Source: Eukaryota sp. GEM-RC1 (Eukaryota). From it: a stretch of DNA of 64,000 bases. Position numbers and translations under genes: made by a program. The notes below the pieces were generated by a model. It was given only the letters and a program-made list of their open reading frames with translations, searched no databases and was not told the origin of the DNA. Shown here one piece after another: positions 14,764 to 51,223 of the stretch; position 1 is the stretch's first letter, and each line of letters starts with the position of its first letter. The stretch lies in assembly GCA_040285855.1 (NCBI GenBank), contig JAUFOQ010000003.1, positions 806,001 through 870,000 of the forward strand, given 5' to 3'.

Positions 14764-17228
14764 CTACAATAAACTGCGACGTTCTAACTCATCAATTGCC
14801 ACACACGCCTTAAGTTCTCTAAGCTTCTCTTTCCAATATCGCGCCTTGATCACGTCAGCATCAGTGCCGATTCCATTCTTGTAACAAGAAATCAAGAGTT
14901 TAATTCCATGTGAATAATTCAATTCTGCTGATTTTTCAAATAATTGAAAAGCCTCGTGACAGTTCTTGGTCACTCCAATTCCATTCTGATACATTATACC
15001 TAAGTTTCGCATAGCAAAAGAACATTTCCGCTCAATCGCCCATTTGAAGTAGTTTACCGCCTTATATATGTCCTTTTCAACACCCAAACCTTTGTAATAC
15101 AAAAACCCTAACCTGTTCATTGCTCCCGGATGTTCTAAAGCAACTGCTGATCTTAACAACCTAACACTTTCATCAAGATTCTGATTAGTTCCATGCCCAT
15201 GTCTATAACAGTCAGACATCCAATAGAGACTTTCGGAATTATTTAAATCTGCTGCTTTTTTAAACCAATCAAATGCTTCTTTTTTGTTTTCCAAAAGACC
15301 CTCACCCCAGTAGTAACAATATCCCACATTAACCATACCAAATACATGACCTAATTCTGCAGCATTTTTAAAATATTCAGCGGCTAAATTTGAATTCTTA
15401 CCGACTCCCAAACCTAAATAATAACAATTTCCTAATTTGAAAATAGCTTCAACGTTGTTCATATTAGCTGACTCTTGAAACAACGCAAAAGCTGTGGAGT
15501 AATTCTGTTCAACATAAGTGCCATGAAAATAATTCAATGCACTGGAGAAAAGTTGAGGTTTCAATTTGATCTCCTTTTCACGTGACTCCCAGAAATCACA
15601 CGAAATTTTTGCAACATACGAATTGATGAAAACACTAAGTGTTTCATCGGAATTTAATTCCATTAACAATTTTAAATATTCCAGCAAGTTTGAATCATTG
15701 ACTGTAATAGACTCCACACATTTCGGAAATACATTAACAGACAGTTGATAGTTAGAGTGTTTTTCTCTCTTCCAAGAATTCACAAGACTTCTTGCTAACC
15801 ATAAACAATATTCACCAGAAAGTGTTCCACAAAGATGTTCAAGACAAGTAAATGAGAAGCAATAATTGGAGTGATCGTTCAAACAGCATGGAGAAATTAC
15901 AGAGGTGAAAATATCAGATAGAAAAGTTAAATGTTTGGCAAATGAATGATTTTGATCAACTTCGCATAAAATGTTAACAAACCACGACGATGTAATTAAT
16001 TCAAAATTCTCAACTCTTTGGAAAATCTCTATCGACCATTCGATTAAAATTGAAGTAAACTGTGAATATTGAAAAGAGGTTTCAAAATTTCAAAAATTTG
16101 AGAACATTCAGAATCGGAAATTACCAACGAAGATAATATTTCAGACAATTCTGATGGCGAGAATGGATCAACTTTGTGAAGTTTCATTAAGCATCTGAAT
16201 AACCAAACAATATCAATAAATGGAAGTAGCAGAATTATGAAAGAAATTCTTAATGGAATAGGATATTCACTAATATGGGAAAGATTTTTGAAAATCTCAA
16301 TATTGTTTTCTACGAAATTGAACAAATATCGTTGATTTGAAATTTTGAGTATATAGATCAATTCTGTTTCAGAAAACCTGTTGCTAGCAAGAAATTGTTC
16401 ACAAGTCAATTGAAGCTGATCAACTTGGAAATATTTGGACAATTGTAAAAAATCCAACAAGTTTAAAAAATCAAGCTTAATTGCCTGGTAATGGAATAAA
16501 TTGAAAAACGCCACTAAATTATCTTCTGAAACACCAGGAAATTCATCAAAATATTGAAACCTTTTGACAGAGCTGTTAGTGCAGGTTTGTGAAGAAGAAG
16601 TCAAGAAAGTTCTTGAGAATAGAGTCAAATTTAACGAATTCATCATGATATCAGTGTTTTTGTAAGAAACACGTACATCATGAGGACAAGATTCAACAAA
16701 CTTTGAAATACAAGTTTTTGGATCCAATTTAAAATTGTTGCTATCCAAGTGCTTGAGGCCATTGCTCATTCTATCATTAAGGAAATCATTTAACTCATGA
16801 TACTGAAGAAGAGAAGCAATAAAGGAAAACATAGGGACAGATTGGGTGGAAATAGAGAGACTTTGGCCATAGAAAGTGTTGAGAACTGACAGGAGAAGCT
16901 CAGAGTCTATGTCGGAGGACAGTGATGCTAGCTCTAGAGTTGAAGACTGAAGAAGCTTTTCCTTAAGAACGGAACTAAATGGGGTGATGATGGAAGAATG
17001 ACATTTGAATAAGCCGTCATCGTACACTATAACTGTGTCCGTCAGGATGTTCTCCTGCTGTAGAGAGTAGAGGTTGTTGTAGAAATGATCAACATTGAAG
17101 GAGAAATTGATTGAGGAAGCTGAGTTATCTGTATCTCGAGAACGTTTTAGTGGAGGAGGGTTTATGCCATTAGATGACGATTGTGTTTCAAAGTGGAACG
17201 ATAAAAGTCGTAGACACTTGGTAAACAT
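14764..17228 (-). CDS. BTB-BTB + Sel1-like repeat protein, copy 1 (frameshift near 16075)
   Basis: Two BTB-like regions (LTDTVI..FKCHSSII; FQVDQL..CEQFL) and C-terminal Sel1 repeats (LGxxYxxGxGV.K...A...F..AA); collinear with intact copy 2. Confidence 0.8.
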
Positions 17229-18061
17229 GATTGACGATGAACCAGAAAATGAGCTTGTCTTATATTTAAATTTTTGACTTGTTCACAAATCAATCAATTT
17301 AACACGATATCTGTGTAGAATGCATCAGGTAACGTTTTTTAACCATCTACGCTTAGTGGTCAGTCTAATAACAATGGTAATGTTACTGTAAATTGTTGAG
17401 CAAAATACACTCAAATGGAAATCTTTCTGTAAGAGTCCTAGTTGTTGGTACTAACAGTCATGGTATACCAGCAATGAAATCCTATCGTAAACTGCAAGCG
17501 TATATGCTTACCAGAATATATGTCTTGACTGGCGAATATTGTTGTGTTAGCCTCAGGAGTTACTACAACGTAGTAGTACGTTAAATTTGATTTAAAAACA
17601 TCGTTAATCTATCCTTTTGAGCCTTTAGGTACCACATAACAGACTTTTCGCATCTTTCCAATTTTGATTGAATCAAGATCAACATCATTCGAACTAGAAT
17701 CCATGTACAATATTGCACAAGCATCAACCATGAGATAAACTTTGGCTGCTAGTCACTGAGTCGAGTGATATAGATTTGATACAAATTCTTCCCTCAACAC
17801 CAATACTGAATAGAAGTTGTCTAATCAAACAGCTTCTTTTAAGTCGAATCAACTAGTCTATCCATGTCTGCAACAAACTTCACAAAGATAAAATTGCAGA
17901 GCTGATGTATAGAATTATCAACGTGACAATCGACACTTTCGTCCAACTTCAAACATTTTGTGAGGTCAAATAGTTCGCTGACTTCTAATATTTGTAGTAA
18001 TTGAATATATAATTCAAAATTTAAATATTAGACAAGCTCATTTTCTGGTTCCTCGTCAATC

Positions 18062-20545
18062 ATGTTTACCAAGTATCTACGACTTTTATCGTTCCACTCT
18101 GAAACACAATCGTCCTCTAATGGCGTAAACCCTCCTCCACTAAAACGTTCTCATGATACAGATAACTCAGCTTCCTCAATCAATTTCGCCTTCAATGTTG
18201 ATCATTTCTACAACAACCTCTACTCTCTACAACAGGAGAACATCCTGACGGACACAATTATAATCTACGATGGTGACTCATTCCACTGTCATTCTTTCAT
18301 CATCTCTACTTTCAGTTCGTATCTTAAGCAGAAACTGCTCCAGTCTTCTACAAGTACTATTGAACTGGCAAACTGTTGCCTTCTTTCAGATTCTGATCTT
18401 GTCTTTTCTGTTCTCAAAACATTCTATGGTCAATGTCTTCATGTTACCGCTCAATCTCTTCCGCAACTTTCTGCTGTTGCTTCTCTCCTTGACTTTCAGG
18501 AGTTAAGTGAGTTTGTTACTGAGAGAATGACACACGGGTTAAAGAACTTTGATGATAGTTCTTTTGTTTTGGATTTGAATGTTGTTGCTTCCAGATGTAT
18601 ATCATCGTGCTTTCATGATGTGCGTGTTTCTTACAAAAACACTCCTGTTAAGACAAATTCTGTTATTCTGGCTGTATTTTCCCGGACATTCTACACTTCT
18701 TTCATTTGTGATTTTGCAGATAAAGAAACTCGAAATTTTCATTATTCTGGAGAGTTTCCAGGTGTTTCAGAAAATATTTTCAGATTGTTCTTCGAGCTAT
18801 TCCACTGTAAATCTATTAAGTTGAATATTTCAAATGTTCTAGATTATTTCCAATTATCATCTTATTTTCAAGTTGATGAACTTAAATTGGCTTGTAATCA
18901 GTTTCTGACAAACAACTGCTTTTCTGAAACCGAATTAATGTGTTTATTGCAAATTTCAAATGAAAGGGATCAGCTCAATTTCGTCGAATACAATATTGAA
19001 ATTTTCAAAATTCTTTCTAATATTGATGAAGAACCTTTTCCATTAACATCATCTTTCGTAGTTTTGCTACTTCCATTTATTGATATTGTTTGGTTATTTA
19101 GATGTTTAATGGAACTTCACAAAGTTGATCCATTCTCGCCTTCAGAATTGTCTGAATTATTATCCTTGTCAGTAATTTCCGAATCTGAATGTTCTCAAAT
19201 TTTTGAAATTTTGAAGCCGCTTTTTCATCTATCACAATTTACTTCAATTTTAATCGAATGGTCGATAAAGACTTTCCAAACTGTTGAGAATTCCGAAACA
19301 ATCACAATATTGTGGTTTTTTACAATTTTGTGCGAAGTTGATAAAAAAATTTGTTTTGGCAAACATTTAAATTTTCTTTCTGATATTTTCACCTCTGTAA
19401 TTTCTCCATGCTGTTTGAACGATCACTCCAATTATTGCTTCTCATTTACTTGTCTTGAACATCTTTGTTCAAAACTCCCTAGTGAATATTGTTTATGGTT
19501 AGCAAGAAGTCTTCTTAATTCTTGGAAGAGTGTAAAATATTCCAACTGTCCGCTGTCTGTTGATGTGTTTGCGAAATGTGTGCAGTCTATTACAGTCAAT
19601 GATTCCAACTTGCTAGATTATTTGAAATTGTTGATGGAATTAAATTCCGATGAAACACTTGGTGTTTTCATCAATTCGTATGTGGCAAAATGTTCACACA
19701 GCTACTGGGAATCACGTAACAATGACTTGAAATTAAGTAATCAACTTTATTCCAATGGATTACATTTTCTTACTAGTGAGTGTTTAAACAAAAATTACTC
19801 CGCTGCTTTTGCGTTGTTTCAAGAGTCAGCTAATATGAACAACGTTGAAGCTATTTTTAAATTAGGAAATTGTTATTATTTAGGCTTGGGAGTCGCTAAG
19901 AATTTAAATTTAGCCGCTGAATATTTTAAAAATGCTGCAGAATTAGGCCATGTTTTTGGTATGGTTAATGTGGGATATTGTTACTACTGGGGTGAGGGTC
20001 TTTTGGAAAACAAAAAAGAAGCATTTGATTGGTTTAAAAAAGCAGCAGATTTAAATAATTCTGAGGCTATGTATTGGCTGTCCTTCAGTTATCGACATCA
20101 TTCCGGTCTTACACAAAACAGATCCAAGGGTATTCGTTGGTTGAAACTTTCTGCTAAATTTGGAAATGCTAGAGCAATGAACGCATTGATCAGTCGGGGT
20201 TTTATATATTTCAATGGAAACGGTGTGAAAGCGAATGTTGATGAAGCTATTCATCATTACCAAATGGCATCTGACGCTGGGTGCTCAAGTGCAATGAAAA
20301 ATCTTGGAGTTAAGTACTTGAGAGGGATTGTTGTGAAAAAGGACCTTCACACAGCTTTTGAATTATTTGAAAAATCAGCCAAATTGAATAATGTTAATGG
20401 AATAGATCAGCTCATTACTTGTATTAAGAATGGGGTGGGAACTGATTGTGATTTGGAGAAAGCCATGCATTGGGAAGCAAAGAAAGAAGAATTGAAAGAC
20501 TGTCAAGCGACTGATCAATTGCTTAGAAGAGGGTTGTTGATGTAA
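18062..20545 (+). CDS. BTB-BTB + Sel1-like repeat protein, copy 2 (intact 827 aa)
   Basis: Intact ORF with two BTB-like domains and about 7 Sel1 repeats. Confidence 0.85.
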   Translation: MFTKYLRLLSFHSETQSSSNGVNPPPLKRSHDTDNSASSINFAFNVDHFYNNLYSLQQENILTDTIIIYDGDSFHCHSFIISTFSSYLKQKLLQSSTSTIELANCCLLSDSDLVFSVLKTFYGQCLHVTAQSLPQLSAVASLLDFQELSEFVTERMTHGLKNFDDSSFVLDLNVVASRCISSCFHDVRVSYKNTPVKTNSVILAVFSRTFYTSFICDFADKETRNFHYSGEFPGVSENIFRLFFELFHCKSIKLNISNVLDYFQLSSYFQVDELKLACNQFLTNNCFSETELMCLLQISNERDQLNFVEYNIEIFKILSNIDEEPFPLTSSFVVLLLPFIDIVWLFRCLMELHKVDPFSPSELSELLSLSVISESECSQIFEILKPLFHLSQFTSILIEWSIKTFQTVENSETITILWFFTILCEVDKKICFGKHLNFLSDIFTSVISPCCLNDHSNYCFSFTCLEHLCSKLPSEYCLWLARSLLNSWKSVKYSNCPLSVDVFAKCVQSITVNDSNLLDYLKLLMELNSDETLGVFINSYVAKCSHSYWESRNNDLKLSNQLYSNGLHFLTSECLNKNYSAAFALFQESANMNNVEAIFKLGNCYYLGLGVAKNLNLAAEYFKNAAELGHVFGMVNVGYCYYWGEGLLENKKEAFDWFKKAADLNNSEAMYWLSFSYRHHSGLTQNRSKGIRWLKLSAKFGNARAMNALISRGFIYFNGNGVKANVDEAIHHYQMASDAGCSSAMKNLGVKYLRGIVVKKDLHTAFELFEKSAKLNNVNGIDQLITCIKNGVGTDCDLEKAMHWEAKKEELKDCQATDQLLRRGLLM

Positions 20546-21319: not shown

Positions 21320-24300
21320 CTACGGAGAATACCGTTCAACAACAACATCTAGTTGTTCAGGTTCTTCAGGAATATTCAAATCAAATACTGGTATTGTTGC
21401 TTGAAGAGTGAACCGGCGACTCAAAAGTCTATCAATACGTTTCTTTCTCTCAACTAGAGCAGAAGGAATCTCATGTAGACCGTTAATTAAATCTAACACC
21501 AAAGTAAACTTGCTACTGAGATCTTGAGAGTAACAAAACTCTAATAATAGAGAAATTTTGGAATAAATTTCCAAACAAATTTCAACAGAACCATTTTGAA
21601 TATATTCCTTGTCAATCAAAGTCAATCCATAATCACAAAGGTAAATATTCTCTAGATTAAGACAATCTACTGGAGAACTCTTGTGTCTAAAAGCTGATAG
21701 AACTGAAACAACTTGTTGCATGTTAGGACGTTCAGTGTATTTAAACTGGAGACATTGACGTAGAAGAGGTAAGAGAGTAGTGGGAAGACCAGAGTGATGG
21801 GGAATATCGGGAATATCACCAGTTCTGAGTGAATCAATAATCAGTTGATCTCTATTAGGAAATCCTTCAAAATCTTGCCAAATTGATTCTTCTGTGAACA
21901 CATAGACTGCAATCAAAGCAAATGAGAAAACGTCAATCGAATCAGCGTAAACGATGTCATCTGAAACGAGCTCAGGACTAGCCCAATTGGGAGTCAAAAC
22001 TCTATTAGAATTTAAAGATAATGACATATTTGAATTTTCAATGTGTTTACCACTTCCCCAATCAATAATAACTGGACAAGCACCTCTAAACAGAATATTG
22101 TCTGGCTTGAGATCTCGATGAAGGAACTTTGACTCGTGGCAAGATACCAAAGCATTAGCTATACTAATTAATACGTCAAGCTTTTTGTTTTCAATTTTGA
22201 TTTTTGAAATTTTGTCCTTTAGAGTTGCACTTGATAGCCGTTCCATTACAAGACCATAGCGTTCCTTGCCATTCTTTGGGACCAAAGTAAGACCATAAAT
22301 TCTGCGTAAAGAAGGAACATTGGGGAGAGAACTTAAAATGGAGAATTCTCTTGCAAGTTCTGGACTAATTTTACCAGTACTATAATACAGTTTAACAACA
22401 ACTTCACTAAGAGCATATTCAGCATGAACGACTTCAGATTGACCACTAAATAGGGAAGTTTCCCAATCAATTTCTAATTCAATTGCAGAAATATTTGATT
22501 GAATTTCTTTTGTTGTTTGATTTTCTAATATTTGGTTTTGAAGAGCCTTACGTTGTTCTGTATGAAGTTGTTGTTGTTCTTCAAGAATTGATTTGAAAGA
22601 TGCTTCAGGAGCAAAAGAGACCCGTTTCTGTAACTCTCGAAATTCTAAACGCATTTCTTTCAATAAAATTTGATTGTGATTGGCCAGTGATGAATGGAAT
22701 TCTTCTTGATCGAAGTCAATGATTGCATCGACCTTTTGTTGTGATAAAGGTGGCAACTTTTCAAAAGTCTTTCCAGCAAAAGCAATTAGCAACTCTGATG
22801 AAAAATCATCCAAAAGTTTGTTACACATTTCAAATTCTCTCTTGAATTTCTCATGAGTGAAAGTTCGCTTAAACCATTGAGCATCGTCATGTTGTGTAAC
22901 CACTGTATTAACTCGATTACAAATATTTGTGAAATTTTTCAAAAGTTCAGAAAACATTGGTGACTCTGCCAGTTCCATGTTAGTTTCTAATTGAGACAGA
23001 GTAAGCTTTGTTAGTCTTAAAACTCTAGCTCCGAGAACTGCAGCTTGAGTCTTATTGATCTTGACGTTTTTGATTGAAGTAAACAAAGTGCCTAGAGCCA
23101 TTCCAATTGGAGAAAATACTGAAGAAGAAGAAGTAAGTAGAGTCAGAGTGTCAAGAATTGGTTCAGTTATTGACTCAATGTACTGATGTGGTTCCCATTC
23201 AGCCAAGTCATCTTTCATGGTTGAAATGGTACTACAAAGGGAGGAAACCACTGATTGGTGGTTAACTTGAAGAGATTTAATCGAATACGTGTGTTCAAGG
23301 ATTTTGTCTTGAGTATTTGTAATAGTTTCAGAAAAGATGGGAATCTTCTTAAGAGGAAGAAGATTTGGAGGATTGAAGTATAACGTAGCCGTTTTCTTTC
23401 GGAAAAACAAACACCATCCGATGGGGACAAGTACGAGGAGTGAAATGATAATGAATACCACAAATTTGAAATCGAAAGTTGCTTTAAGTTGTTCCTTTGG
23501 GTCTTCAGGATCCAAGGCTGTTGGGCAAACAAGTTCATCATCAGTTAACTCCGGAAATACTGAGACAACAACAATAGAAAGAGATCTTTCAGTTTGAATT
23601 TCAAAAGAGCCTCACAATTGATATAAATAGAACTAAATTCAGCATTCCCGTCATTAAAAAATAACAAAGTAAACGAATCATTTAGATTGAGGTGGTGATT
23701 GAAGAAATCAATAATCATGATTCCATTAAAAAGATTGTTCCTTGTACTCGTAAGAACTTGCTATCAGATTTCTTGTTATTGAATATTAACTTCGAAGTAG
23801 GATATAGCATTAAATCATGTTGAATTTCAATTTCAGATGGTTCAAATGTTCCATAATTAAAAACAGTAGAATTAATATAACCAATGCCAATAATAGAAGA
23901 AAATTCTGAAATGAAGAAGTTATGGGCTTCGACAGTCCCTCCATTGAAAACAAAAGTGAACGACGAGTCAAAATCAAGAAATCCATCAATTTTGATTAGT
24001 CCCGAAACTGCAACATTATTCACTAGTTTAATACCTGGAAAAGAGCATATTAAAGAACCATACGAAAGAACATCGACAGAAATATCTAAAAGTAAATAAG
24101 ATTCAAAATTGTTTTCTACATCCAAAGTTCCTTCAATTTCAATATGAGAGTCATCATTTCCAGAAATACTATATTCCATCAACACTTCTTCAAGTAACTG
24201 ATTAGAATGGGAATTCGTTTTTAAGTTCTTCGTTCTAAGAGCTTCTGTTCTACCATCTTCTCCATTACCCCAAGTTGAGAGTGGTGATGACGTGTCACTT

Positions 24301-27300
24301 TGGGCAACAATTAATCTAGCATCTTTTTAACAATCACTCTAGAATTGACAAGAATTAACTGTGGTTCTATTAATTTTCCAAACGCCAAAATAATTAAATT
24401 AATACCAGACAATTTTGTAACACCAATGAACTCATAAGAAAGTGAAGTAAACACTGAGTGAATATCACAAGTAGATTCAATGGAAGAATCAATGAAGGAA
24501 ATGAAACCATTGACTGTGATTGAAGAACAATCAAGAGAAATAACAACATTGGTGAGGTACAGAGAGTTGATGATGACGTTTTGGTCAATAAATACATCTT
24601 GATTAATATAATTACCATCTATAATTACAGTGGAATTCTCATTAGGAGGAGATGGTACCCATATATCATTTCTTGACCAAAGAATATCATAAGAATTATT
24701 GGGAGGTAGATCTAGATTGGTAGGATTAACTACTGGTAAAAGACATTGACCTGAAACAGGATCAATTCCTGGATAGTCCTGGGTAGTTACCACGCTGATA
24801 GAAGAATCATCAAAAACAAGTCAAAATACAGATCACATTGCACTTTGAAGGAGTCATGTTCAGAAAGTAAAGAACCAAATAGAACTAAAGAAAAGGTATA
24901 ATTAGCAGAAATTGAATTGGGAAAAGTAAAAACAAAGGATCCATTTACAGAAAGAATTCCTTTAACAATTAATTGAGTATTGTTGTTATAGTTTAATAAA
25001 ACACTAGAATGTTCAGCAACTACCAAGTCCTTTTGAATTTCAAGTAAACCAGAAGGAATAATTTTTCCATAATTAACAATAGTAGAATTGAATAATCCAT
25101 AGCCTGTAATTGAAGCCAATTCTCGAATTATTACAACTTCAGCTTTTATACTTCCACCATTAAGAATCAAAGTAGATGACGAGTCAAATTCAAGAAGACC
25201 ATCAACACTGATCACTCCAAAATTCTCCAATGATTTTCCAACTTTTAGGCCACTGAAAAAGACAAGAGAGTTCCAGTTGAAGAAATAGAAATAACTGTAT
25301 CCAAAACCAAAGGCAATGTTTCACGAGTTTCGAATAAACCTTCAATTTGAACAACAGAATACTCATTTCCAGAAATATTAGGTTGAATAATGTCACTTTG
25401 GTCAATAAGTAATGCTGCATCTTCTGTAATAATTACTGTAGAATTGACAAGATTTAACTGTGGTTCTATTAATTTTCCAAATTCCAAAACAATTAGATTA
25501 ATACCAGACAACTTTGTAACACCAATAAAATCATAGGTAAGTGAAGTAAACTCTGATGGAGTATCACAAGTAGATTCAATGGAAGAATCAATGAAGGAAG
25601 TGAAACCATTGACTGTGATTGAAGAACATTGAAGAGAAAGAACGACATTGGTGAGGTAAAGAGATTTGATGATGACGTTTTGGTCAATAAATACAACTTG
25701 ATTAATATAATTACCATCTATAATTACAGTGGAATTCTCATTAGGAGGAGATGGTACCCAGATATCAATTCTTGACCAAAGAATATCATTAGAATTATTA
25801 AGGGGAACAACAAGGTAAACATTGGGATCTAATGGTAAAGGACATTGACCTGAAACCGGATCAATTCCTGGATAGTCTTGGGTAGTTACCACGCTGATAG
25901 AAGAATCACCAAAAACAAGTCAAAATACTGATCACATTGCACTGAAAATGAGCCATGTTCAGAAAGTAAAGAGCCAAATAGAACTAAAGAAATGGTATAA
26001 TTAGAAGGAATTGATTTGTCAAAAGAAAAAACAAAGGATCCATTTACAGAAAGAATTCCTTTAACAATCAATTGAGTTTCACTGTGGTTATAGTTTAATA
26101 AAACACTAGAATGTTCAGCAACTACCAAGTCTTTTTGAATTTTCAGTAAACCAGAATGAATAAGTTTTCCATAATTAACAATAGTAGAATTGAATAATCC
26201 ATAGCCTGTAATTGAAGCCAATTCTTGAATTATTACAACTTCAGCCTTTATATTTCCATCATTAAGAATCAAAGTAGATGACGAGTCAAATTCAAGTAAA
26301 CCATCAACACTAATTACTCCAAAATTCTCCATTGATTTACCAACTTTTAGACCACTGAAAAAGACAAGAGAGTTCCAGTTGAAGAAATAGAAATATCTGT
26401 ATCCAAAACCAAAGGCAATGTATCACGAGTTTCGAATAAACCTTCAATTTGAATAACAGAATACTCATTTCCAGAAATATTAGGTTGAATAATGTCACTT
26501 TGGGCAACAATTAAAGTGGCATCTTCTTTAACAATTACTGTAGAATTGACAAGATTTAACTGTGGTTCTATTAATTTTCCAAATTCCAAAACAATTAGAT
26601 TAATACCAGACAACTTTGTAACACCAATAAAATCATAGGTAAGTGAAGTAAACTCTGATGGAGTATCACAAGTAGATTCAATGGAAGAATCAATGAAGGA
26701 AGTGAAACCATTGACTGTGATTGAAGAACATTGAAGAGAAAGAACGACATTGGTGAGGTAAAGAGATTTGATGATGACGTTTTGGTCAATAAATACAACT
26801 TGATTAATATAATTACCATCTATAATTACAGTGGAATTCTCATTAGGAGGAGATGGTACCCAGATATCAATTCTTGACCAAAGAATATCATTAGAATTAT
26901 TAAGGGGAACAACAAGGTAAACATTGGGATCTAATGGTAAAGGACATTGACCTGAAACCGGATCAATTCCTGGATAGTCTTGGGTAGTTACCACGCTGAT
27001 AGAAGAATCACCAAAAACAAGTCAAAATACTGATCACATTGCACTGAAAATGAGCCATGTTCAGAAAGTAAAGAGCCAAATAGAACTAAAGAAATGGTAT
27101 AATTAGAAGGAATTGATTTGTCAAAAGAAAAAACAAAGGATCCATTTACAGAAAGAATTCCTTTAACAATCAATTGAGTTTCACTGTGGTTATAGTTTAA
27201 TAAAACACTAGAATGTTCAGCAACTACCAGGTCTTTTTGAATTTTAAGTAAACCAGAATGAATAAGTTTTCCATAATTAACAATAGTAGAATTGAATAAT

Positions 27301-30300
27301 CCATAGCCTGTAATTGAAGCCAATTCTTGAATTATTACAACTTCAGCCTTTATACTGCCACCATTAAGATTTAGAGTAGATGACGAGTCAAATTCAAGTA
27401 AACCATTAACACTGATCACTCCAAAATTCTCCATTGATTTTCCAACTTTAAGGCCACTGAAAAAGACAAGAGAGTGCCGGTTGAAGAAATGGAAACATCT
27501 GTATCCAAAACCAAAGGCAATGTATTACGAGTTTCGAATAAACCTTCAATTTGAACAACAGAATACTCATTTCCAGAAATATTAGATTGAATAATGTTAC
27601 TTTGGTCAACAATTAAAGTGGCATCTTCTTTAACAATTACTTTAGAATTGACAAGATTTAACTGTGGTTCTGTTAATTTTCCAAATTCCAAAACAATTAG
27701 ATTAATACCAGACAACTTTGTAACACCAATAAAATCATAGGTAAGTGAAGTAAACTTTGATGGAGTATCACAAGTAGATTCAATGGAAGAATCAATGAAG
27801 GAAGTGAAACCATTGACTGTGATTGAAGAACAATCAAGAGAAAGAACGACATTGCTGAGGTACAGAGAGTTGATGTTGACGTTTTGGTCAATAAATACAA
27901 CTTGATTAATATAATTACCATCTATAATTACAGTGGAATTCTCATTAGGAGGAGATGGTACCCAGATATCAATTCTTGACCAAAGAATATCATTAGAATT
28001 ATTAAGGGGAACGACAAGGTAAACATTGGGATCTAATGGTAAAGGACATTGACCTGAAACAGGATCAATTCCTGGATAGTCTTGGGTAGTTACCACGCTG
28101 ATAGAAGAATCATACAAAAACAAGTCAAAATACTGATCACATTGAACTTTGAATGAGCCATGTTCAGAAAGTAAAGAGCCAAATAGAACTAAAGAAATGG
28201 TATAATTAGAAGGAATTGATTTGTCAAAAGCAAAAACAAAGGATCCATTTACAGAAAGAATTCCTTTAACAATCAATTGAGTTTCACTGTGGTTATAGTT
28301 TAATAAAACACTAGAATGTTCAGCAACTACCAAGTCTTTTTGAATTTTCAGTAAACCAGAATGAATAAGTTTTCCATAATTAACAATAGTAGAATCGATT
28401 AATCCATAGCCTGTAATTGAAGCCAATTCTTGAATTATTACAACTTCAGCCTTTATACTTCCACCATTGAGAAACAAAGTAGATGACGAGTCAAATTGAA
28501 GTAAACCATCAACACTAATTACTCCAAAATTCTCCATTGATTTACCAACTTTTAGGCCACTGAAAAAAGACAAGAGAGTTCCAGTTGAAGAAATAGAAAC
28601 ATCTGTATCCAAAAGCAAAGGCAATGTATTACGAGTTTCGAATAAACCTTCAATTTGAATAACAGAATACTCATTTCCAGAAATATTTGGTTGAATAGTG
28701 TTACTTTGGTCAACAATTAATGCTGCAGCTTCTTTAACAATTACTTTAGAATTGACAAGATTTAACTGTGGTTCGATTAATTTTCCAAACTCCAAAACAA
28801 TTAGATTAATACCAGACAGCTTTGTAACACCAATAAACTCATAGCTAAATGAAGTAAACTTTGATGGAGTATCACAAGTAGATTCAATGGAAGAATCAAT
28901 GAAGGAAATGAAACCATTGACAGTGATTGAAGAACAATCAAGAGAAATAACAACATTGGTGAGGTACAGAGAGTTGATGATGACGTTTTGGTCAATAAAT
29001 ACAACTTGATTAATATAATTACCATCTATAATTACAGTGGAATTCTCATTAGGAGGAGATGGTACCCATATATCATTTCTTGACCAAAGAATATCATAAG
29101 AATTATTGGGAGGTAGATCTAGATTGGTAGGATTAACTACTGGTAAAAGACATTGACCTGAAACAGGATCAATTCCTGGATAGTCCTGGGTAGTTACCAC
29201 GCTGATAGAAGAATTATCAAAAACAAGTCAAAATACAGATCACATTGCACTTTGAAGGAGTCATGTTCAGAAAGTAAAGAACCAAATAGAACTAAAGAAA
29301 AGGTATAATTAGCAGAAATTGAATTGGGAAAAGTAAAAACAAAGGATCCATTTACAGAAAGAATTCCTTTAACAATTAATTGAGTATTGTTGTTATAGTT
29401 TAATAAAACACTAGAATGTTCAGCAACTACCAAGTCCTTTTGAATTTCAAGTAAACCAGAAGGAATAATTTTTCCATAATTAACAATAGTAGAATTGAAT
29501 AATCCATAGCCTGTAATTGAAGCCAATTCTCGAATTATTACAACTTCAGCTTTTATACTTCCACCATTAAGAATCAAAGTAGATGACGAGTCAAATTCAA
29601 GAAGACCATCAACACTGATCACTCCAAAATTCTCCATTGATTTTCCAACTTTTAGGCCACTGAAAAAGACAAGAGAGTTCCAGTTGAAGAAATAGAAATA
29701 ACTGTATCCAAAACCAAAGGCAATGTTTCACGAGTTTCGAATAAACCTTCAATTTGAACAACAGAATACTCATTTCCAGAAATATTAGGTTGAATAATGT
29801 CACTTTGGTCAATAAGTAATGCTGCATCTTCTGTAATAATTACTGTAGAATTGACAAGATTTAACTGTGGTTCTATTAATTTTCCAAATTCCAAAACAAT
29901 TAGATTAATACCAGACAACTTTGTAACACCAATAAAATCATAGGTAAGTGAAGTAAACTCTGATGGAGTATCACAAGTAGATTCAATGGAAGAATCAATG
30001 AAGGAAGTGAAACCATTGACTGTGATTGAAGAACATTGAAGAGAAAGAACGACATTGGTGAGGTAAAGAGATTTGATGATGACGTTTTGGTCAATAAATA
30101 CAACTTGATTAATATAATTACCATCTATAATTACAGTGGAATTCTCATTAGGAGGAGATGGTACCCAGATATCAATTCTTGACCAAAGAATATCATTAGA
30201 ATTATTAAGGGGAACAACAAGGTAAACATTGAGATCTAATGGTAAAGGACATTGACCTGAAACCGGATCAATTCCTGGATAGTCTTGGGTAGTTACCACG

Positions 30301-33300
30301 CTGATAGAAGAATCATCAAAAACAAGTCAAAATACTGATCACATTGCACTAAAAATGAGCCATGTTCAGAAAGTAAAGAGCCAAATAGAACTAAAGAAAT
30401 GGTATAATTAGAAGGAATTGATTTGTGAAAAGCAAAAACAAAGGATCCATTTACAGAAAGAATTCCTTTAACAATCAATTGAGCTTCATTATTGCAATAG
30501 TTTAGAAAAACATTCGAATGTTGAGCAATTGCCAAATCCTTTTCAATTTCAAGTAAACCAGAAATTTTGATGGTTCCATGATTAAAGACAGTCGAAATGA
30601 TTGATCCATAGCCTGAAATTGAAGCAGATTCATAAACAATAATATCTTGAGCATCAACATTACCACCACTAAGATTCAGAACAGATGACGAGTCCAATTC
30701 AAGAAGACCATCAATAATAACTATTCCAGAGTTGTTGATGGACTTTTCAAACCTCATTTCTGAAAGGGTAGAGAAAATACTACCAGAAGTATGAACAAGA
30801 ACTGAAGTGTTGAGTGTCAGAGGAAGTTCCAGATTGATAAGCAACTCTCCTTCGATTTCTAAAAAAGAACCTTCACCAGTAACATGAGATGTAACCAAAT
30901 CTTGTACAAAGAAATGATCATAACCAACAAAAACTTTACCAACCTTAAGTCCAATAGTTTCAGTAGTTGGAGAAGGTAAGTTTGTCCCAGACCAACTATA
31001 CAAAATTCCAGTTACAGATAAGGCAAAGACGATCTCTGAACTGCTATGAATACCAGTAATCCTTTCCAATCCTTCAACTTTCCCAGATGAATGAGATGGA
31101 ACAGTACTGGTAGATCTACCGAGAATCTCACCACAAGAATAAACGTCACCTTGAGAAGTCAAAAGATTGAAAATTTTCTACCACAACTTACTTGAATCAC
31201 GTAAAAATCTTTAGAGTTAGCAATGGGTGTAGGACTATTCCTGTCATTGATATCTCCAACACAAAGCTGACCATTGTCATTCCTACCTGTAGCAAATAGA
31301 TCACCACTTTCAGTGAGGAAAAATGAGTGTTCAAAACATCCTACAACTTTCTTGCTAGGTAAGTTAAGAGAAACTAAATGAGGAGATGACTTACCGGCGG
31401 AAAAACCCGAGGAACTAATACCAAGTTGTCCATAACGGTTATAACCCCAAGACTTCGCTTCTCCATTAGACAAAACTGCTAAGGAATGCGCATATCCGGC
31501 AGATACATAGTTAACATTGGAAAGAAATTCAATTCTTTCGGGAAAATATTGGTTAGGAAAAGTATTGCCATGTCCAAGTTGGCCATACAGTGAAGCCCCG
31601 AAGGAGTAAACATCGCCATTTATTAGTCTAACCAGACTATGACCATAACCAGCAGAAGCTTGGACAATATTGGTCAAATTAATTTTTGTTGGATCCATAC
31701 GACTGTCAGCATCTCCCAAGCCAAGTTGACCAGTTTCACCAAAGTCAGTCACAAAGTTTGTTCCCCAAGAGTAGAGAAAACCGTCTCTTGTAACTCCTAG
31801 AGAGTGTGCTTTACCAGCGGTAACTGAAAAAACTTCTGCTCAGTATTGATTGGTAATAAAATATGATTACCTTGATGCCCAGTTCCTGTTTTCCCATCTT
31901 CTCCGTTACCCCAAGCTAGGAGTGGTGATGACGTGTCACTTTGGTCAACAATTACTGTGGCATCTTCTTTAACAATTACTTTAGAATTGACAAGAGTTAA
32001 CTGTGGTTCTATTAATTTTCCAAGCTCCAAAACAATTAGATTAATACCAGACAACTCTGTAACACCAATAAACTCATAGGTAAATGAAGTAAACTTTGAT
32101 CGAATATCACAAGTAGATTCAATGGAAGAATCAATGAAGGAAGTGAACCCATTGACTGTGATTGAATAACAATCAAGAGAAAGAACGACATTGCTGAGGT
32201 AAAGAGAGTTGATGATGACATCTTGGCCGATGAATACAAGTTGATTAATATAATTACCATCTATAATTACAGTGGAATTCTCATTAGCAGTAGATGGTAC
32301 CCAGATATCATTTCTTGACCAAAGAATATCATTAGAATTATTGAGGGGAACAACAAGGTAAACATAGTCGTCTAATGGAAAAGACATTGACCTGAAACAG
32401 GATCAATTCCTGGATAGTCTTGGGTAGTTACCACGCTGATAGAAGAATCATCAAAAACAAGTCAAAATACTGATCACATTGAACTCTGAATGAGTCATGT
32501 TCAGAAAGTAAAGAGCCAAATAGAACTAAAGAAATGGTATAATTAGGAGGAATTGAATTGGGAAAAGTAAAAGAAAATAACCCGTTTACAGAAAGAATTC
32601 CGTTAACAATCAATTGAGTTTCATTGTTGTTATAGTTTAATAAAAAATTCGACTTTTCAGCAATTGTCAAGTGTTTGTAAATTTGAAGTACACCAGAAGG
32701 TTTAATTTTTCCATAATTAACAACAGTTGAATTAATTGACCCAAAGCCTGTAATTGAAGCATATTGTTGGACGGCAATATGACTAGCTTCTATGTTACCA
32801 CCAAAGAGAGCAATCAGTGAAAATGAGTTAAATTCAAGAAACTGGTCACATTTGACCGTACCAAAAGTTTCCAGTTTTGTGAGAAATTTGACAGGCAAAA
32901 ACGAGGATAAAAATCCACTAGAATGTATGATGACTGAAATATTCAACAACAACGGAAATTCTAGACGGTTCTCCAATTTTCCTGCAATTTCTATAGAAGA
33001 GTCTTCATCTCCAGTTATGTCAGTATGTACAGTTTCTTGGGCAAACCGGTGGAATGTCCCTGGAAAATACTTACCAACCTTTAGTTCAGAAGTTTCTGTG
33101 ACAGGAGAAGGTACCAGTAGTTCCCAGTCAGAGTATCTCCAACTATACAATGTTCCATCAGTCGACAAGGCAATGTTAACACCATATAAACCTTTATATA
33201 TGCTGGAGACCACACCCATACCTTCAACTTTTCCCGGAGTATGGGAAGGGACTGTATCCGTAGATCGGCCAATTGCTCTACCACACGAGAAAACTTCACC

Positions 33301-34566
33301 TTGTGCAGTAAGAAAAATGGTGGTTTCATGATGTTGGTAACTAGACAACTTACATGGTCTAGCTTGAATCACGTGGAAATCTCTAGAGTTAACAATGGCA
33401 GTAGGCACATCTCTGTCAGTGGTATCACCAACACAAAGCTGACCTTTAGTATTTTTTACCTGAAGCAAATAACTCACCACTTTCAGTAAGGAACAGAGAG
33501 TGGCGAAACCCACCACTCACTTTCTTAACTCGGTGACTAATGACAACGGGATAGGGAGAAGTATGAACAAAGGTGTATCTGTTCCAAGGGAACCGGGACA
33601 ACAACCCCAAGCTTTCACTTCTCCATTTGACGATACAGCGAAAGAATTTTGGGCTCCAGTAGATATGTCAACAACATTGGAAAGATTATTAATTTTTCTG
33701 GGCAATAATTCATCTGTACCGGAGGTTCCGTGTCCAAGTACTCCCAAATCAGAACTCCCAAAGGAGTAAACGTCACCATTGTCTAGTCTAACCAGACTAT
33801 GATCAGACCCAGTAGAAACTTGGACAACATTGATTAAATTTAATTTTGTTGGTACTAATCTATTGGTAGTATCGCCTAAGCCTAGCTGACCTCTAGAGTT
33901 AGCTCCCCACGAGTACAGGAAACCATCCCTGGTAAGACCAAGACTGTGTCCTTCACCAGCAGCAATAGAAATAAACTTCTGATCTGTGTGGACTGGCATA
34001 AGACCATGGTTACCTTGATTACCAGTTCCTGTTCTTCCATCAGCTCCCCGACCCCAAGCTATGAGTAGTGATGACGTGTCACTTTGATCAACAATTAATG
34101 TAGCATTTTCTTTAACAATTACTTTAGAATTGACAAGAGTTAACTGTGGTTCTATTAATTTTCCAAAGTCAAATACAATTAGATTAATACCAGACAACTT
34201 TGTAACACCAATGAACTCATAGGTAAGTGAAGTAAACTTTGATAGAATATCACATGTAGATTCAATGGAAGAATCAATGAAGGAAGTGAAACTATTGACT
34301 GTGATTGAAGAACAATCGATGGAAATGACGACATTGGTTAGGTGAAGAGAGTTGATGATGACGTCGTCATTGTTCACAAAGATAGAGGACTCTAGTTGAC
34401 TCCCATCAATGTAGACATTGGAAGTTTCAGTAGGAGGAGAAGGAGTCCAGAGATCAGATCGAGTCCAAAGGAGATCGGTAGAATCTGGAGGAAGAAAATG
34501 AACGTCATTGGCAAGACATAAAGAGCGTAGCAAAAGCATAAACACAGCAAATCTCAAACTAGTCAT
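21320..34566 (-). CDS. Giant single-pass receptor-like kinase: signal peptide - 8 extracellular repeats (2 with RCC1 propellers) - TM - MLKL-NTD-like 4HB - protein kinase (~4,400 aa, split by homopolymer indels)
   Basis: ATG 34566 followed by a signal peptide (MTSLRFAVFMLLLRSLCLA). Collinear same-strand ORF fragments; the breaks checked fall in T/A runs, and one junction is intact in ORF 27416-29200. The last repeat reads ...CEALFEIQTERSLSIVVVSVFPELTDDELVCPTALDPEDPK into the 731-aa TM-kinase ORF (VVVK, HRDLKPDN, DWG, WASPE, DVFSF). Confidence 0.8.
23530..34500 (-). repeat. Intragenic tandem repeat of ~1.1-kb (~367 aa) units, 8 copies
   Basis: The VTTQDYPGIDPVSGQC marker recurs at about 32428, 30299, 29200, 28096, 26994, 25892 and 24793. 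Spacing is 1099-1104 bp, or 2129 bp where RCC1 is inserted. Confidence 0.95.
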
Positions 34567-35290: not shown

Positions 35291-35748
35291 TCCAGCTAGA
35301 TTCAGCAATCATTGGATGTAGAATAAAAGCATTGTTTTTCTGAACAAATCTTTCCAAAGTCAAAGTTGTTTAATCAGAGGCCCAAAGGAACTCTTGAGTT
35401 GTTTGTATGATGGTGGTCTGGGTTTTACTGGTTGAATTCAAGTATTTTTAAATTTTTCTCTTTTATAATTATTATTACTTGACAGATCTGATTTATGTTT
35501 AGATTTTTCCAGAATTGAGTTTTATTTATTACCCATGCGATACACTATATTTTTACTTGATAAATACTTTTGAACTTGGGTGTTGGTGTATGTATTGTGC
35601 ATGTGGAGTTAATCATATGGTTAATTGTTAGTGTTGCACGAAACGTTAGTAGGTCTGTGGAATCGTCAACATACGTTTCCAAAATTTGACAATTACTGTT
35701 GTAAAATGACGACTTGTTACAAAACTTTGTTTTAAAAATGGTATTAGT

Positions 35749-36450
35749 TTGGCTACAATTGAGAATTCCGCTTTTTGTGGTTTCTTGAAAGACATTTCTA
35801 GTGATGAGGCTTCTACTTTGATTACTCGATATCCGCAAAGTTATAGTTTCAACTTAAAAGATCATGAATGGCTTATCAACATTCGTTTGAGGTTAGGTTT
35901 ATGGCCTGATGGTCTCCTTCAAAAGTCTACTTCCGGGTGTGGTTCTTCTTTGGCATCTTTCCATCATGTGGTCAACTGTCATAAGTTTATTCATTTAAGA
36001 TCAATTTTAAATCAATGTTTAGAATTGTTTAAGAGCAATGGTTTTCATGGAAAAATCGAACCGGTTTTAAAGACTTTGACTAAACTATGAGAGATAAGAG
36101 TCCTCACTATAAAAATTATGGACTTTACTACGGTTGATCCTTGTAACTCACCTTCCGTTTACAGAATTTTAGTCGAACACTGTGCAGCTCTTGAAACTGC
36201 TGAAAGGAAAAAATTTAACTCGCTGGTCAATAACTTACCAAGATGAATTCTCTCCAACACAATCCGTTTGTTTTCCATCCTTATGCTATTTCTCCTTATG
36301 AAACGTTTGGTTTTTTCAATAGAAGAGATACTCACATCTTTTGGAAAATTGTGTAAGCAGTATGGACAAAACTTAATGAAAGTTATTGGAGAAGAAGGTT
36401 GACATTTTCCCTCTTCAAAGCGTTGTTTAGGTATTTTGATTGGTTTTCAA
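35749..36450 (+). mobile_element. Degenerate RLE-type non-LTR retroelement 3' fragment
   Basis: WLINIRLRLGLWP, HVVNC, KIEP, MDFTTVDP, AERKK and PYAIS motifs; frameshifts. Confidence 0.7.
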
Positions 36451-36714
36451 ACAGTCTCTTTACATTGAGACATGATTTTGAGACGATGTAGATGTATTGT
36501 GATCTCCTTTGTCAATGATGATGATCTGAATCTGTATGAATAAATTAAAGGGTTTTTTTTGTTTTGAACATCAAAAGAAATTAATTGTTTAAGTAGTGTA
36601 GTAAGAAGTCGAAAATTTTGTGAATACATATTTGAAACAAAAAACGAGTAAACTTCAGAATATAATCTATGAAACACTCGACACTGAAACTGTCTTATAT
36701 AATGGTAGAACTTT

Positions 36715-37150
36715 TCAATCTCAATGATCATGACTGGCTTGTTAATATATGAGACTTCGTTTAGGTTTTTGACCATTTGGACTGTTACAGAACAACATGT
36801 AGATCTGTAAATACAAACCGAAGGCTAGCTTTCACCATTTGGTCAATTGTCCGAAGTTCATTTATTCTCGTTCAATTTTGCACAACAGTTTCTGATATAC
36901 CTGTTTGGAATTGTTCAAGGCGAATAGTTTCCATGGCAAAGTGGACCATATACTTTCTCATCTTTCAGATCACTCTGATTCTACTCAGAAACATGGTGAT
37001 TTCATCGGCCCTTGGTTGTCATGCCAGGAAGTTGAAGTCAATGTTACGACTGTTGGCCCTTGCAAATCTTCAGCTATGAGTTTCAAAATTTGTTTGAAAA
37101 CTTGTGTTCAGAATTCGTTAAGAAGTTTAACAGTTCGTAATGGAAGAGTA
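36715..37150 (+). mobile_element. Degenerate RLE-type non-LTR retroelement fragment
   Basis: LNDHDWLVN..RLRLG, HLVNCP, FKANSFHGKV, GDFIGPW and VTTV, matching the neighbouring fragment. Confidence 0.6.
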
Positions 37151-37455
37151 AATTTGCTATTTCTACTTTTGAGTCATTGCAAAGATATGTGGATTCGATT
37201 TTGGCCAAGCGGTTTGGGTAACTACTGTTCGTAATTGGGTAGTTTGTTTGATAGTTTGTTTTAATAGTGTTTATTTATCTACATTGTATTTGTTGTTTTC
37301 TTGATGTGTGTTTTTCTCCACACGTAAATCCGCTCTTTATGGTAGAACAGTTCATGTAAAACCAATAGAATTTTCATCTTCGTTCATCGATCGGAAAAGA
37401 GAAAACAATCAAACGATTCTGACAAACTGATAAGCCACATAGAAATTCTGAAATT

Positions 37456-39879
37456 ATGCCTTCATCGGGATCTCCAGAAGAACTTACACCTTATACTACA
37501 TGCTCACAAGATCAAAATGGATGTGTTTCTGATTTCTTTTCCTTTACATATGATCATGTCTACAAAGTTCTTTGCTCGTTTCAACAAGCTTACATTCTCA
37601 CAGACACAGTCATTGTGTATGGCAGTATCAAGTTCCACTGTCATTCTTCCATCATCACCCCATTTAGTTCCGTTCTAAAGGAAAAGCTTCTTCAGTCTTC
37701 GACTCTAGAGCTATCATCAATGTCCTCCGATATAGACTCTGAGCTTCTCCTGTCAGTTCTCAACACTTTCTATGGCCACAGTCTTCCAATTTCCACCCAA
37801 TCTGTCCCTATGTTTTCCTTTATTGCTTCTCTTCTTCAGTACCATGAGTTGAATGATTTCCTTGATGATAGAATGAGCAATGGCCTCAAGCACTTGGATA
37901 GCAACAATTTTAAATTGGATCCAAAAACTTGTATTTCAAAGTTTGTTGAATCTTGTCCTCATGATGTACGTGTTTCTTACAAAAACACTGATATCATGAT
38001 GAATTCGTTAAATTTGACTCTATTCTCAAGAACTTTCTTGACTTCTTCTTCACAAACCTGCACTAACAGCTCTGTCAAAAGGTTTCAATATTTTGATGAA
38101 TTTCCTGGTGTTTCAGAAGATAATTTAGTGGCGTTTTTCAATTTATTCCATTACCAGGCAATTAAGCTTAATTTTTTAAACTTGTTGGATTTTTTACAAT
38201 TGTCCAAATATTTCCAAGTTGATCAGCTTCAATTGACTTGTGAACAATTTCTTGCTAGCAACAGGTTTTCTGAAACAGAATTGATCTATATACTCAAAAT
38301 TTCAAATCAACGATATTTGTACAAATTCGTAGAAAACAATATTGAGATTTTCAAAAATCTTTCCCATATTTGTGAATATCCTATTCCATTAAGAATTTCT
38401 TTCATAATTCTGCTACTTCCATTTATTGATGTTGTTTGGTTATTCAGATGCTTAATGAAACTTCACAAAGTTGATCCATTCTCGCCATCAGAATTGTCTG
38501 AAATATTATTTTCGTTGGTAATTTCCGATTCTGAATGTTCTCAAATTTTTGAAATTTTGAAACCTCTTTTCAATATTCACAGTTTACTTCAATTTTAATC
38601 GAATGGTCGATAGAGATTTTCCAAAGAGTTGAGAATTTTGAATTAATTACATCGTCGTGGTTTGTTAACATTTTATGCGAAGTTGATCAAAATCATTCAT
38701 TTGCCAAACATTTAACTTTTCTATCTGATATTTTCACCTCTGTAATTTCTCCATGCTGTTTGAACGATCACTCCAATTATTGCTTCTCATTTACTTGTCT
38801 TGAATTTCTTTGTTCAAAACTCCCTGGTAAATATTGTTTATGGTTAGCAAGAAGTCTTGTGAATTCTTGGAAGAGAGAAAAAACACTCTAACTATCAACT
38901 GTCTGTTGATGTATTTGCGAAATGTGTGCAGTCTATGACAGTCAATGATTCCAACTTGCTAGATTATTTGAAATTGTTGATGGAATTAAATTCCGATGAA
39001 ACACTTGGTATTTTCATCAATTCGTATGTAGCAAAATTTTCATGTGATTTCTGGGAATCACGTGAAAAGGAGATCAAGTTGAAACCTCAACTTTTCTCCA
39101 GTGCATTGAATTATTTTCATGGCACTTATGTTGAACAGAATTACTACACAGCTTTTGCGTTGTTTCAAGAGTCAGCTATTATGAATAACGTTGAAGCTAT
39201 TTTTAAATTAGGAAATTGTTATTATTTAGGCTTGGGAGTTGGTAAGAATTTAAATTTAGCCGCTGAATATTTTAAAAATGCTGCAGAATTAGGCCATGTC
39301 TTTGGTATGGTTAATGTGGGATATTGTTACTACTGGGGGAAGGTCTTTTGGAAAACAAAAAAAGAAGCATTTGATTGGTTTAAAAAAGCAGCAGATTTAA
39401 ATAATTCCGAAAGTCTCTATTGGCTGTCTGACTGTTATAGACATGGGCACGGAACTAATCAGAATCTTGGTGAAAGTATTAGGTTGTTAAGAGCGGCAGT
39501 TGCTTTAGAACATCCGGGAGCAATGAACAGGTTAGGGATGTTGTATTATGAAGGTTTGGGGGTTGAAAAGGACATATATAAGGCGGTAAACTACTTCAAA
39601 TGGGCGATTGAGCGGAAATGTTCTTTTGCTATGAGAAACTTAGGTATAATGTATCAGAATGGAATTGGAGTGACCAAGAACTGTCACGAGGCTTTTCAAT
39701 TATTTGACAAATCAGCAGAATTGAATTATTCACATGGAATTAAATATTTGATTTCTTGTTACAAGAATGGAATTGGCACTGATGCTGACGTGATCAAGGC
39801 AAGGCATTGGGAAGAGAAGCTTGGAGAACTAAAGGGTTGTGTGGCAATTGATGAGTTAAAATGTCGAAGTTTGTTGTAG
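37456..39879 (+). CDS. BTB-BTB + Sel1-like repeat protein, copy 3 (frameshifted)
   Basis: Nearly identical to copy 1 from about aa 50 onward, including the 3' flank, with a different N-terminus. Confidence 0.8.
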
Positions 39880-51100: not shown

Positions 51101-51223
51101 GGGGAGATTCCCTAACCCTTCCGAAGAAGGTACTCCACCAAACAGAGCAGAGAATTCATCTGGGGTGAGTTTCTTCTTGGCATTAGAAGCCAATATATAT
51201 TGATGCTTTGTGTTAGAAGACAT
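45134..51223 (-). CDS. Gag-Pol polyprotein (fragmented by indels)
   Basis: Collinear ORFs 49973-51223, 49231-49815, 48075-49001, 46967-47974, 46278-46865 and 45134-46120. Confidence 0.85.
50645..50992 (-). repeat. Coding minisatellite in Gag, about 11 units of 30/33 bp encoding (P/S)SP(E/D)KD(G/R)GT(P)K
   Basis: Directly visible tandem units. Confidence 0.95.

Follow-up and report, generated by a model that had tools for sequence, protein, structure and literature searches.

The question raised by this locus is whether one protist gene can hold an extracellular sensor, an MLKL-type four-helix bundle (4HB) and a kinase in a single membrane-spanning chain, and what such a protein would do. The locus lies in a window of 64,000 nucleotides from Eukaryota sp. 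GEM-RC1 (GenBank assembly GCA_040285855.1, contig JAUFOQ010000003.1, positions 806,001 to 870,000 of the forward strand), the whole stretch of DNA that was analysed and to which all positions below refer. We found that its minus strand, from 34566 to 21320, contains 19 overlapping open reading frame (ORF) pieces with 18 single-base breaks between them. With an X placed at each break, these pieces gave a giant receptor of 4,421 amino acids (aa), from the ATG at 34566 to the stop at 21320, with no internal stops. The architecture, with a transmembrane helix (TM), the 4HB, a brace and a kinase in a receptor layout, is almost certainly real, and the locus is likely one gene encoding a single-pass surface receptor. 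An earlier note on this DNA had joined about 20 same-strand pieces into one frame of ~4,400 aa and read it as a single receptor-type polypeptide; both proposals held, the second through the unbroken TM-4HB-kinase ORF and the intact relatives P0008 and P0003.

The key fusion does not depend on frame repair, since TM, 4HB, brace and kinase share one stop-free frame: the ORF at 23611-21320 (minus strand) covers TM, helical domain, brace and kinase in 763 aa, and all 18 breaks are upstream of the TM (none within the 763-codon TM-kinase frame). A base was lost in 17 of the breaks and gained in one. A regular expression search detected homopolymer runs in 17 out of 18 break overlaps, with an A5 run at the edge of the 18th, which is weak evidence alone because such runs are frequent in AT-rich DNA; across the window, the homopolymer spectrum showed long runs only mildly depleted, which is not decisive. 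One recurring break site has T6 in the in-frame repeat versus T5 in four broken repeats, and a second recurring site is broken in 6 out of 7 repeat copies. The breaks are probably sequencing errors, because all of them are spanned by P0008 (RCL1_003930 of Eukaryota sp. TZLM3-RCL), an intact predicted gene model of 3,640 aa: 14 breaks are gap-free within 14 columns of the alignment and four have 1–3 gaps. The X-joined protein is colinear with P0008 over aa 1–1960 (at 50%) and aa 3068–4417 (at 56%). Introns at the breaks were rejected, since the homology to P0008 leaves no room for them, and programmed frameshifting is unlikely because the same sites are in frame in one repeat copy and in the ortholog. 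Skoliomonad assemblies are described as Nanopore-based with Illumina correction (10.1101/2023.05.03.539051).

The order signal peptide/ectodomain, TM, 4HB and kinase is common to four skoliomonad metamonad genes. The window itself is probably skoliomonad too, judging from its homology to the named relatives. P0008 combines a signal peptide, repeats, three RCC1 propellers, TM, MLKL_N and kinase, while P0003 (P9112_009625 of TZLM1-RC) is a 1,254-aa gene model of a short receptor with one propeller and the full layout. The paralog gene model P0056 joins repeats and TM to the cytoplasmic cassette, and P0054 and P0051 are additional ectodomain paralog pieces. The window copy has the layout of a type I receptor (signal peptide, ectodomain, one TM with a basic inner flank, and kinase), which relies there on reading through the 18 breaks and is intact in P0008 and P0003. 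In particular, the hydrophobic N-terminus is also present in P0008, P0054 and P0003, and the TM in P0056, P0008 and P0003. The TM (aa 3708) is the sole peak above 1.9 in KD19 hydropathy (Kyte-Doolittle) along the 4,421-aa protein; it was placed at 23464-23402, in agreement with the 23467-23405 given before, whereas the juxtamembrane linker, previously put at ~80 aa, is predicted to be disordered over 46 aa.

The helical domain behind the linker was confirmed as an MLKL-type 4HB homologue by four methods (Pfam, PDB profile search, Atlas neighbours and VIA structure comparison), as had been proposed from its resemblance to the MLKL N-terminal domain (NTD). Pfam MLKL_N scored 34.3 bits on the bundle (cut-off 27, E 2e-8), and the relatives scored 20–36 bits, several of them under the cut-off. 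An 8-row bundle profile searched against PDB placed human MLKL NTD chains on top (E 1e-3), and phmmer with the bundle sequence alone against PDB returned nothing meaningful. The top named Atlas neighbour was an MLKL_N cluster (0.94), in which 36% of the members carry the family. For the AlphaFold2 (AF2) model of the cytoplasmic part (predicted local distance difference test, pLDDT, 80), Foldseek ranked mouse MLKL first (4btf, 502 columns), a match of the kind that the earlier note had proposed to look for by structure search; VIA with the same whole model returned kinases only. When the helical domain was modelled alone (pLDDT 93.7), VIA ranked human MLKL first (6ux8; Z 12.2, rmsd 3.0 over 145 aa) and also recovered mouse MLKL (4btf, Z 10.8), AtMLKL3 (6ka4, Z 9.1) and NRG1 CC-R (Z 6.8). 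HET-S HeLo was not among the best 50 VIA matches of this domain, by which kinship is not excluded. Foldseek with the domain alone gave a probability of at least 0.96 to MLKL chains only (TM(target) 0.62–0.73, E >0.2).

In the VIA alignment, residue 1 of MLKL corresponds to model residue 47, and two well-predicted helices (aA and aB) precede MLKL helix 1. The domain thus starts earlier, at 23263, than the ~23140-22770 assigned before, although the MLKL-type bundle itself stood. The suggested release of the 4HB by cleavage in the juxtamembrane linker did not fare as well: such a cut alone would leave helix 1 covered, because of the two helices ahead of it. Conservation of the receptor peaks in the 4HB, which has 90% identity to P0008 and 100% to P0056; the identity to P0008 is 82% for the kinase, 65% for the brace, 55% for the C-terminal domain (CTD), 45–59% for parts of the ectodomain and 41% for the poorly conserved linker (46–63 aa across four receptors). 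D269 and E273 align with D107 and E111 of human MLKL and both are kept in 9 out of 15 relatives, and the positions of human K22, K25, R34 and K40 are also basic.

The kinase retains the VVVK (K407), HRDLKPDN and DWG motifs and the degenerate Gly loop noticed earlier. K407 and E422 are near-invariant in a 27-row alignment, and the HRD-x-K-P-x-N, DWG and PE motifs are intact in 13 out of 16 rows; among the other rows, P0012 has degenerate motifs, and P0006 and P0017 stop early. Its best PDB sequence matches were ZAK, LRRK2 and BRAF (E 1e-11 to 1e-10), with none at E<=1e-15. The layout had been described as ending in this kinase, which is present as described, but a helical domain of 100 aa lies after it; no family was found for this domain in Pfam or PDB.

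The repeat ectodomain was also as anticipated; it consists of eight repeats and contains two RCC1 propellers in addition. W-motifs start the repeats at 34467, 32321, 30185, 29086, 27982, 26880, 25778 and 24679. The repeat unit measures 367–368 aa, or 713–717 aa where a propeller of ~345 aa is inserted mid-repeat (repeats 1 and 2 out of eight), and repeats 2–8 share 80–100% identity over their first 130 aa. We counted 56 N-glycosylation sequons. The repeats are predicted to form a beta-helix stalk; no repeat family was found in Pfam or NCBIfam, and the Atlas neighbours, which are bacterial autotransporter-passenger-like, stay below 0.9 (0.83–0.89; a lead only). The propellers are pairwise 37–79% identical with indels clustered in the loops, and propeller 1 has 45–67% identity to the others, again with indels in loops. 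The W-G-N-G start motif left in repeat 8 suggests a lost propeller; P0008 repeats hold similar remnants, and the numbers of repeats and propellers vary between receptor genes.

Table 1. Features of the receptor gene, with positions in the 64,000-nucleotide window.
Feature	Positions	Strand	Basis
Whole receptor gene	21320..34566	-	4,421 aa, 18 single-base breaks bridged with X
Predicted signal peptide, ~19 aa	34510..34566	-	Hydrophobic N-terminus, KD10 2.4
Ectodomain, ~3,690 aa	23465..34509	-	Eight beta-rich repeats
RCC1-like beta-propeller 1, within repeat 1, variable loops	33034..34074	-	Pfam RCC1 / WD40_RLD
RCC1-like beta-propeller 2, within repeat 2	30899..31931	-	Pfam RCC1 E 2e-42
Propeller-start remnant (W-G-N-G motif), repeat 8	24245..24290	-	Sequence
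Single TM helix, then RKK (type I topology)	23402..23464	-	KD19 2.86
Juxtamembrane linker, 46 aa, predicted disordered	23264..23401	-	pLDDT <50
Two extra helices aA and aB before MLKL helix 1	23117..23263	-	pLDDT >90
MLKL-type four-helix bundle (PF22215)	22772..23116	-	Pfam, PDB profile, fold matches
Brace, long helices joining bundle to kinase	22496..22771	-	AF2 secondary structure
Protein kinase (K407, E422, HRDLKPDN, DWG, SPE)	21677..22495	-	Pfam Pkinase E 1e-27
C-terminal helical domain, ~100 aa, family-wide	21377..21676	-	AF2 helices, high pLDDT

The search for paralogs that the earlier note advised recovered both related receptors and a larger cassette family in the protein databases. 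All or part of the cassette (aA-aB-4HB-brace-kinase-CTD) is carried by at least 18 skoliomonad proteins besides the window, a lower bound that includes incomplete gene models and counts paralogs from protein databases. A bundle profile search of the full library gave 47 matches, and in 42 of them the domain begins within the first 45 aa; P0003 was the only one with a strong TM upstream of the bundle, the other receptors being hidden because the library representatives were clustered at 50%. A metagenome scan gave 149 pattern matches and no confirmed relatives. Helices aA-aB are the usual N-terminus of the skoliomonad family: the aA motif lies at aa 12–14 in 9 out of 14 relatives, which puts helix aA no more than 14 aa from the initial Met. 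C-terminal partners of the cassette are LRR, RCC1, B-box, Sel1 or several TMs, and N-terminal partners are Ras (P0018), an Hsp70 fragment (P0006) or 174 extra aa (P0007). Among the unverified gene models, P0011 has the bundle with B-box and LRR and no kinase, P0018 joins a Ras-like GTPase to a decayed bundle (19%), a kinase (56%) and Sel1, P0006 has the Hsp70 fragment and the bundle, and P0007 shows a second weak bundle-like stretch ahead of the cassette. P0010 and P0050 have the cassette at the N-terminus, then a TM, an unclassified loop of ~540 aa and two TMs; judging from this order, they are a second, putatively reverse-topology type of receptor, and they may suit a test of killing better because their N-terminus is free.

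A 22-row tree grouped the type I receptors and the N-truncated P0002 in one clade with moderate support (84/84), nested among the members with a free N-terminus. A long branch (support 100/100) separated the skoliomonad set from eight outside MLKL_N-kinases. The tree was rooted at the midpoint and omitted P0006, P0009, P0011, P0015-P0017, most distant matches and plant kinases. The receptor arose once, through the fusion of a repeat/RCC1 ectodomain onto the older skoliomonad cassette. A cassette paired with varied ectodomains follows the pattern of immune receptor families, which join an effector to variable sensors.

Our preferred reading, which we hold tentatively and with a little less than even confidence, is that of an all-in-one defence receptor, in which a ligand switches on the kinase and the unlatched bundle acts on the membrane. 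The receptor would sit at the cell surface, where the beta-helix stalk of eight repeats would hold the propellers far from the membrane and their variable loops would bind the ligand. Binding would cluster the receptors and turn the kinase on by trans-autophosphorylation. The capping helices would then be displaced, perhaps by proteolysis or at the Ser-rich loop that precedes MLKL helix 1, and the bundle, unlatched by the kinase, would act on the adjacent membrane through ion flux or lysis, with a defence response as the outcome. This reading is supported by the unbroken TM-4HB-kinase ORF, the full layout in intact P0008 and P0003 and the joined one in P0056, the 4HB homology, the conservation of the 4HB above other regions, the D107/E111 equivalents, the basic positions shared with human MLKL and the intact catalytic motifs, as well as by the sensor-like domains shuffled around the cassette, the variable propeller loops and the kinase-less P0011. 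Precedents from fungal all-in-one HeLo systems, cleavage-activated MLKL in echinoderms (PMC11932488) and the propeller ectodomain of CRINKLY4 also support it.

Several observations weigh against the defence receptor. With Foldseek, the helical domain alone had no match at E<=1e-3 and a THATCH domain came first by E-value, while in VIA a designed bundle reached Z 10.1, and Z 12.2 is near the chance range for helical bundles. The positions of human K16/R17 and R29/R30 are not basic in the bundle, and K16/R17 are reported to be needed for efficient liposome permeabilisation by MLKL (PMC6013482). The same source gives D107/E111 as essential for killing yet dispensable for liposome leakage; their conservation may thus reflect protein contacts, since the mutants still permeabilise liposomes. 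N-terminal tags are reported to prevent MLKL killing (PMC7305131, PMC13180255), and in the model the bundle N-terminus would be tethered, with the two additional helices capping it. The fungal BaMLKL and Goodbye-like bundles are described as N-terminally extended too, with their killing role open (PMC9815663), and the cassette tolerates the N-terminal fusions listed above. The kinase Gly loop reads LFSGQSEV, with one Gly left, versus IMGGQGFV in P0007; catalytic activity is therefore graded as likely and unproven, the catalytic motifs being kept but this loop degenerate.

Many of these points are shared by the main rival, an explanation modelled on the wheat kinase-fusion protein Pm13, which we find distinctly possible though we lean away from it. 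The bundle would be autoinhibitory, oligomerising or substrate-docking, the output would be phosphorylation, and the bundle would never be inserted in the membrane. Full-length Pm13 and its MLKL_NTD alone are reported as non-killing (PMC11297308), whereas the brace-kinase fragment kills in a kinase-dependent manner (PMC11297308; abstract of PMC10951266), so that killing there comes from this fragment only and requires an active kinase. The intact kinase motifs, the tethered and capped bundle without K16/R17 equivalents, the several members with N-terminal fusions, and P0018, with its decayed bundle and kept kinase, fit such a role. Conversely, conservation among the receptors is higher in the bundle than in the kinase, the cassette sits at a free N-terminus in 9 out of 14 relatives, and P0011 has dispensed with the kinase.

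It is unlikely that the receptor serves non-defence signalling, responding to prey, surface contact or encystment cues, with the bundle acting at most as a regulated sub-lethal cation pathway. The adhesin-like stalk of 3,700 aa fits contact sensing, and the gene is kept in every skoliomonad source seen with a strongly conserved cytoplasmic part, unlike fast-turnover immune genes. Plant MCAfunc proteins, which have a channel role, are Atlas neighbours (0.88). Skoliomonads are described as anaerobic bacterivorous metamonads, one isolate of which makes cysts (PMC11603281), and prey sensing suits a bacterivore as well as defence does. On the other hand, the family has expanded and its domains have been shuffled, with LRR, RCC1 and Sel1 as partners, and the characterised 4HB relatives all act in death or immunity in the cited literature, as far as available to us. 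Finally, it is very unlikely that the locus is a broken or split copy, with genuine frameshifts that would make it either a pseudogene or the source of a soluble 4HB-kinase of 632 aa (P0001, from an internal Met) beside separate ectodomain genes: the 18 breaks, the public gene models that divide the locus into P0055, P0053, P0052 and P0001, and the mild deficit of long homopolymers are in its favour, but the common direction of 17 breaks, the T6/T5 contrast, the lack of in-frame stops, the span of P0008 over every break with no intron room, the unbroken TM-kinase frame and the similar breaks in other multi-copy genes of the window argue against it, an internal Met start would remove helix aA, and the architecture persists in P0008 and P0003 even if the window copy is dead.

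With these results, the range of the MLKL/HeLo/RPW8 bundle comes to include Metamonada, where it occurs in an expanded, domain-shuffled family. It is possible, if some way short of probable, that skoliomonads have an MLKL-based innate-immune repertoire, with surface receptors of both topologies that carry their own activating kinase and a pore-forming bundle; death receptor, RIPK3 and MLKL would then be collapsed into one chain in unicells remote from the animal, plant and fungal lineages. Should the bundle kill, a single cell could have necroptosis-like death wired straight to its sensing of the outside, a point relevant to why unicells retain suicide programmes. If it does not, the family offers a natural test of what makes an MLKL bundle a killer or a regulator, as tethered, free, kinase-less and degenerate members coexist and the cytoplasmic module of 630 aa is easily expressed.

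The receptor gene is flanked by three BTB-BTB-Sel1 paralogs (14764-17282, minus strand; 18032-20545 and 37423-39879, plus strand), the middle one intact and the other two out of three frameshifted; they are possible linked immune or ubiquitin adaptors. At 1-2889 (plus strand), a subtilisin-EGF protein is followed after a frame change by a piece that has a hydrophobic segment at its C-terminus, and the product is likely, from these features, a membrane-anchored surface protease. Tandem MIF4G (eIF4G-like) gene copies, at least four with a period of ~1.7 kb, occupy 58159-64000 (plus strand). Mobile elements were also present: an LTR (long terminal repeat)-retrotransposon-like element at 45134-51268 (minus strand), with protease, reverse transcriptase, RNase H and integrase in separate frames and a 30-bp tandem repeat upstream (50649-50991), and a Pogo/Tc5-type DDE transposase in two frames at 43868-44928 (minus strand). 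Short 30–32-bp tandem repeats lie beyond the retroelement in an ORF-poor stretch (52386-54079). Related unclassified ORF fragments at 41471-42274 (minus strand) and 35710-37234 (plus strand) had no Pfam match, and we take them to resemble a non-LTR retroelement at its C-terminal end.

The receptor has the 4HB-brace-kinase-fold order in common with animal MLKL and plant AtMLKL3, which are its closest structural matches among known systems. Animal MLKL, which ruptures animal cells during programmed death, is soluble, and its pseudokinase is switched on by RIPK3, whereas the receptor kinase keeps its catalytic residues; the receptor further differs in its ectodomain of ~3,700 aa, the TM, the linker and the two helices before helix 1, and in the C-terminal helical domain after the kinase. 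CRINKLY4, another single-pass receptor kinase, has a developmental role; its family belongs to plants, with a kinase of the RLK lineage and a cysteine-rich domain behind a disulfide-bonded propeller. CRINKLY4/ACR4 carries an extracellular BLIP-II/UVR8-like propeller, a likeness by analogy, and the accessible text describes neither an MLKL bundle nor a giant stalk of repeats for it (10.1101/2020.08.10.245050). Wheat Pm13 has MLKL_NTD, brace and a functional Ser/Thr kinase in one chain, as the receptor does, but is described as a protein of 476 aa without signal peptide, ectodomain or TM, apparently cytoplasmic/nuclear (PMC11297308, PMC10951266). The fungal HeLo/HELL, BaMLKL and Goodbye-like proteins resemble the receptor in having an MLKL-like bundle extended by N-terminal helices (PMC9815663), and fungal HeLo systems also include all-in-one effector-plus-sensor designs (PMC12881547); in these sources, however, they are cytosolic NLRs or amyloid-triggered effectors, while the receptor has no NACHT/NB-ARC match and would sense extracellularly.

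Outside the skoliomonads, matches included rotifer and Blastocladiella MLKL_N-kinases, so the combination of bundle and active kinase is widespread. Eight proteins (P0020, P0023, P0033, P0049, P0028, P0032, P0043 and P0046) are soluble MLKL_N-TKL kinases with catalytic motifs like those of the cassette, often with C-terminal NHL or Sel1 repeats, and they have an N-terminal bundle with no upstream TM. P0028, P0032, P0043 and P0046 are MLKL_N-kinase-Sel1 proteins, at least three of them on short Logan contigs. The open-access literature, as far as its text was available, held no transmembrane receptor with an MLKL bundle and no MLKL in skoliomonads; in the accessible text of a survey of protist TM kinases (PMC10463195) the terms MLKL, RCC1 and metamonad are absent, and in that of a preprint on Legionellales symbionts MLKL appears once, where a legend describes effector domains (10.64898/2026.04.11.717937). 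The statement that no protein of this architecture had been described thus stands for the single-pass receptor form within the open-access literature. The union of MLKL_N with an active kinase is already known from Pm13 and appears in rotifer and chytrid sequences. The parts are known, and the receptor topology and the lineage appear to be new.

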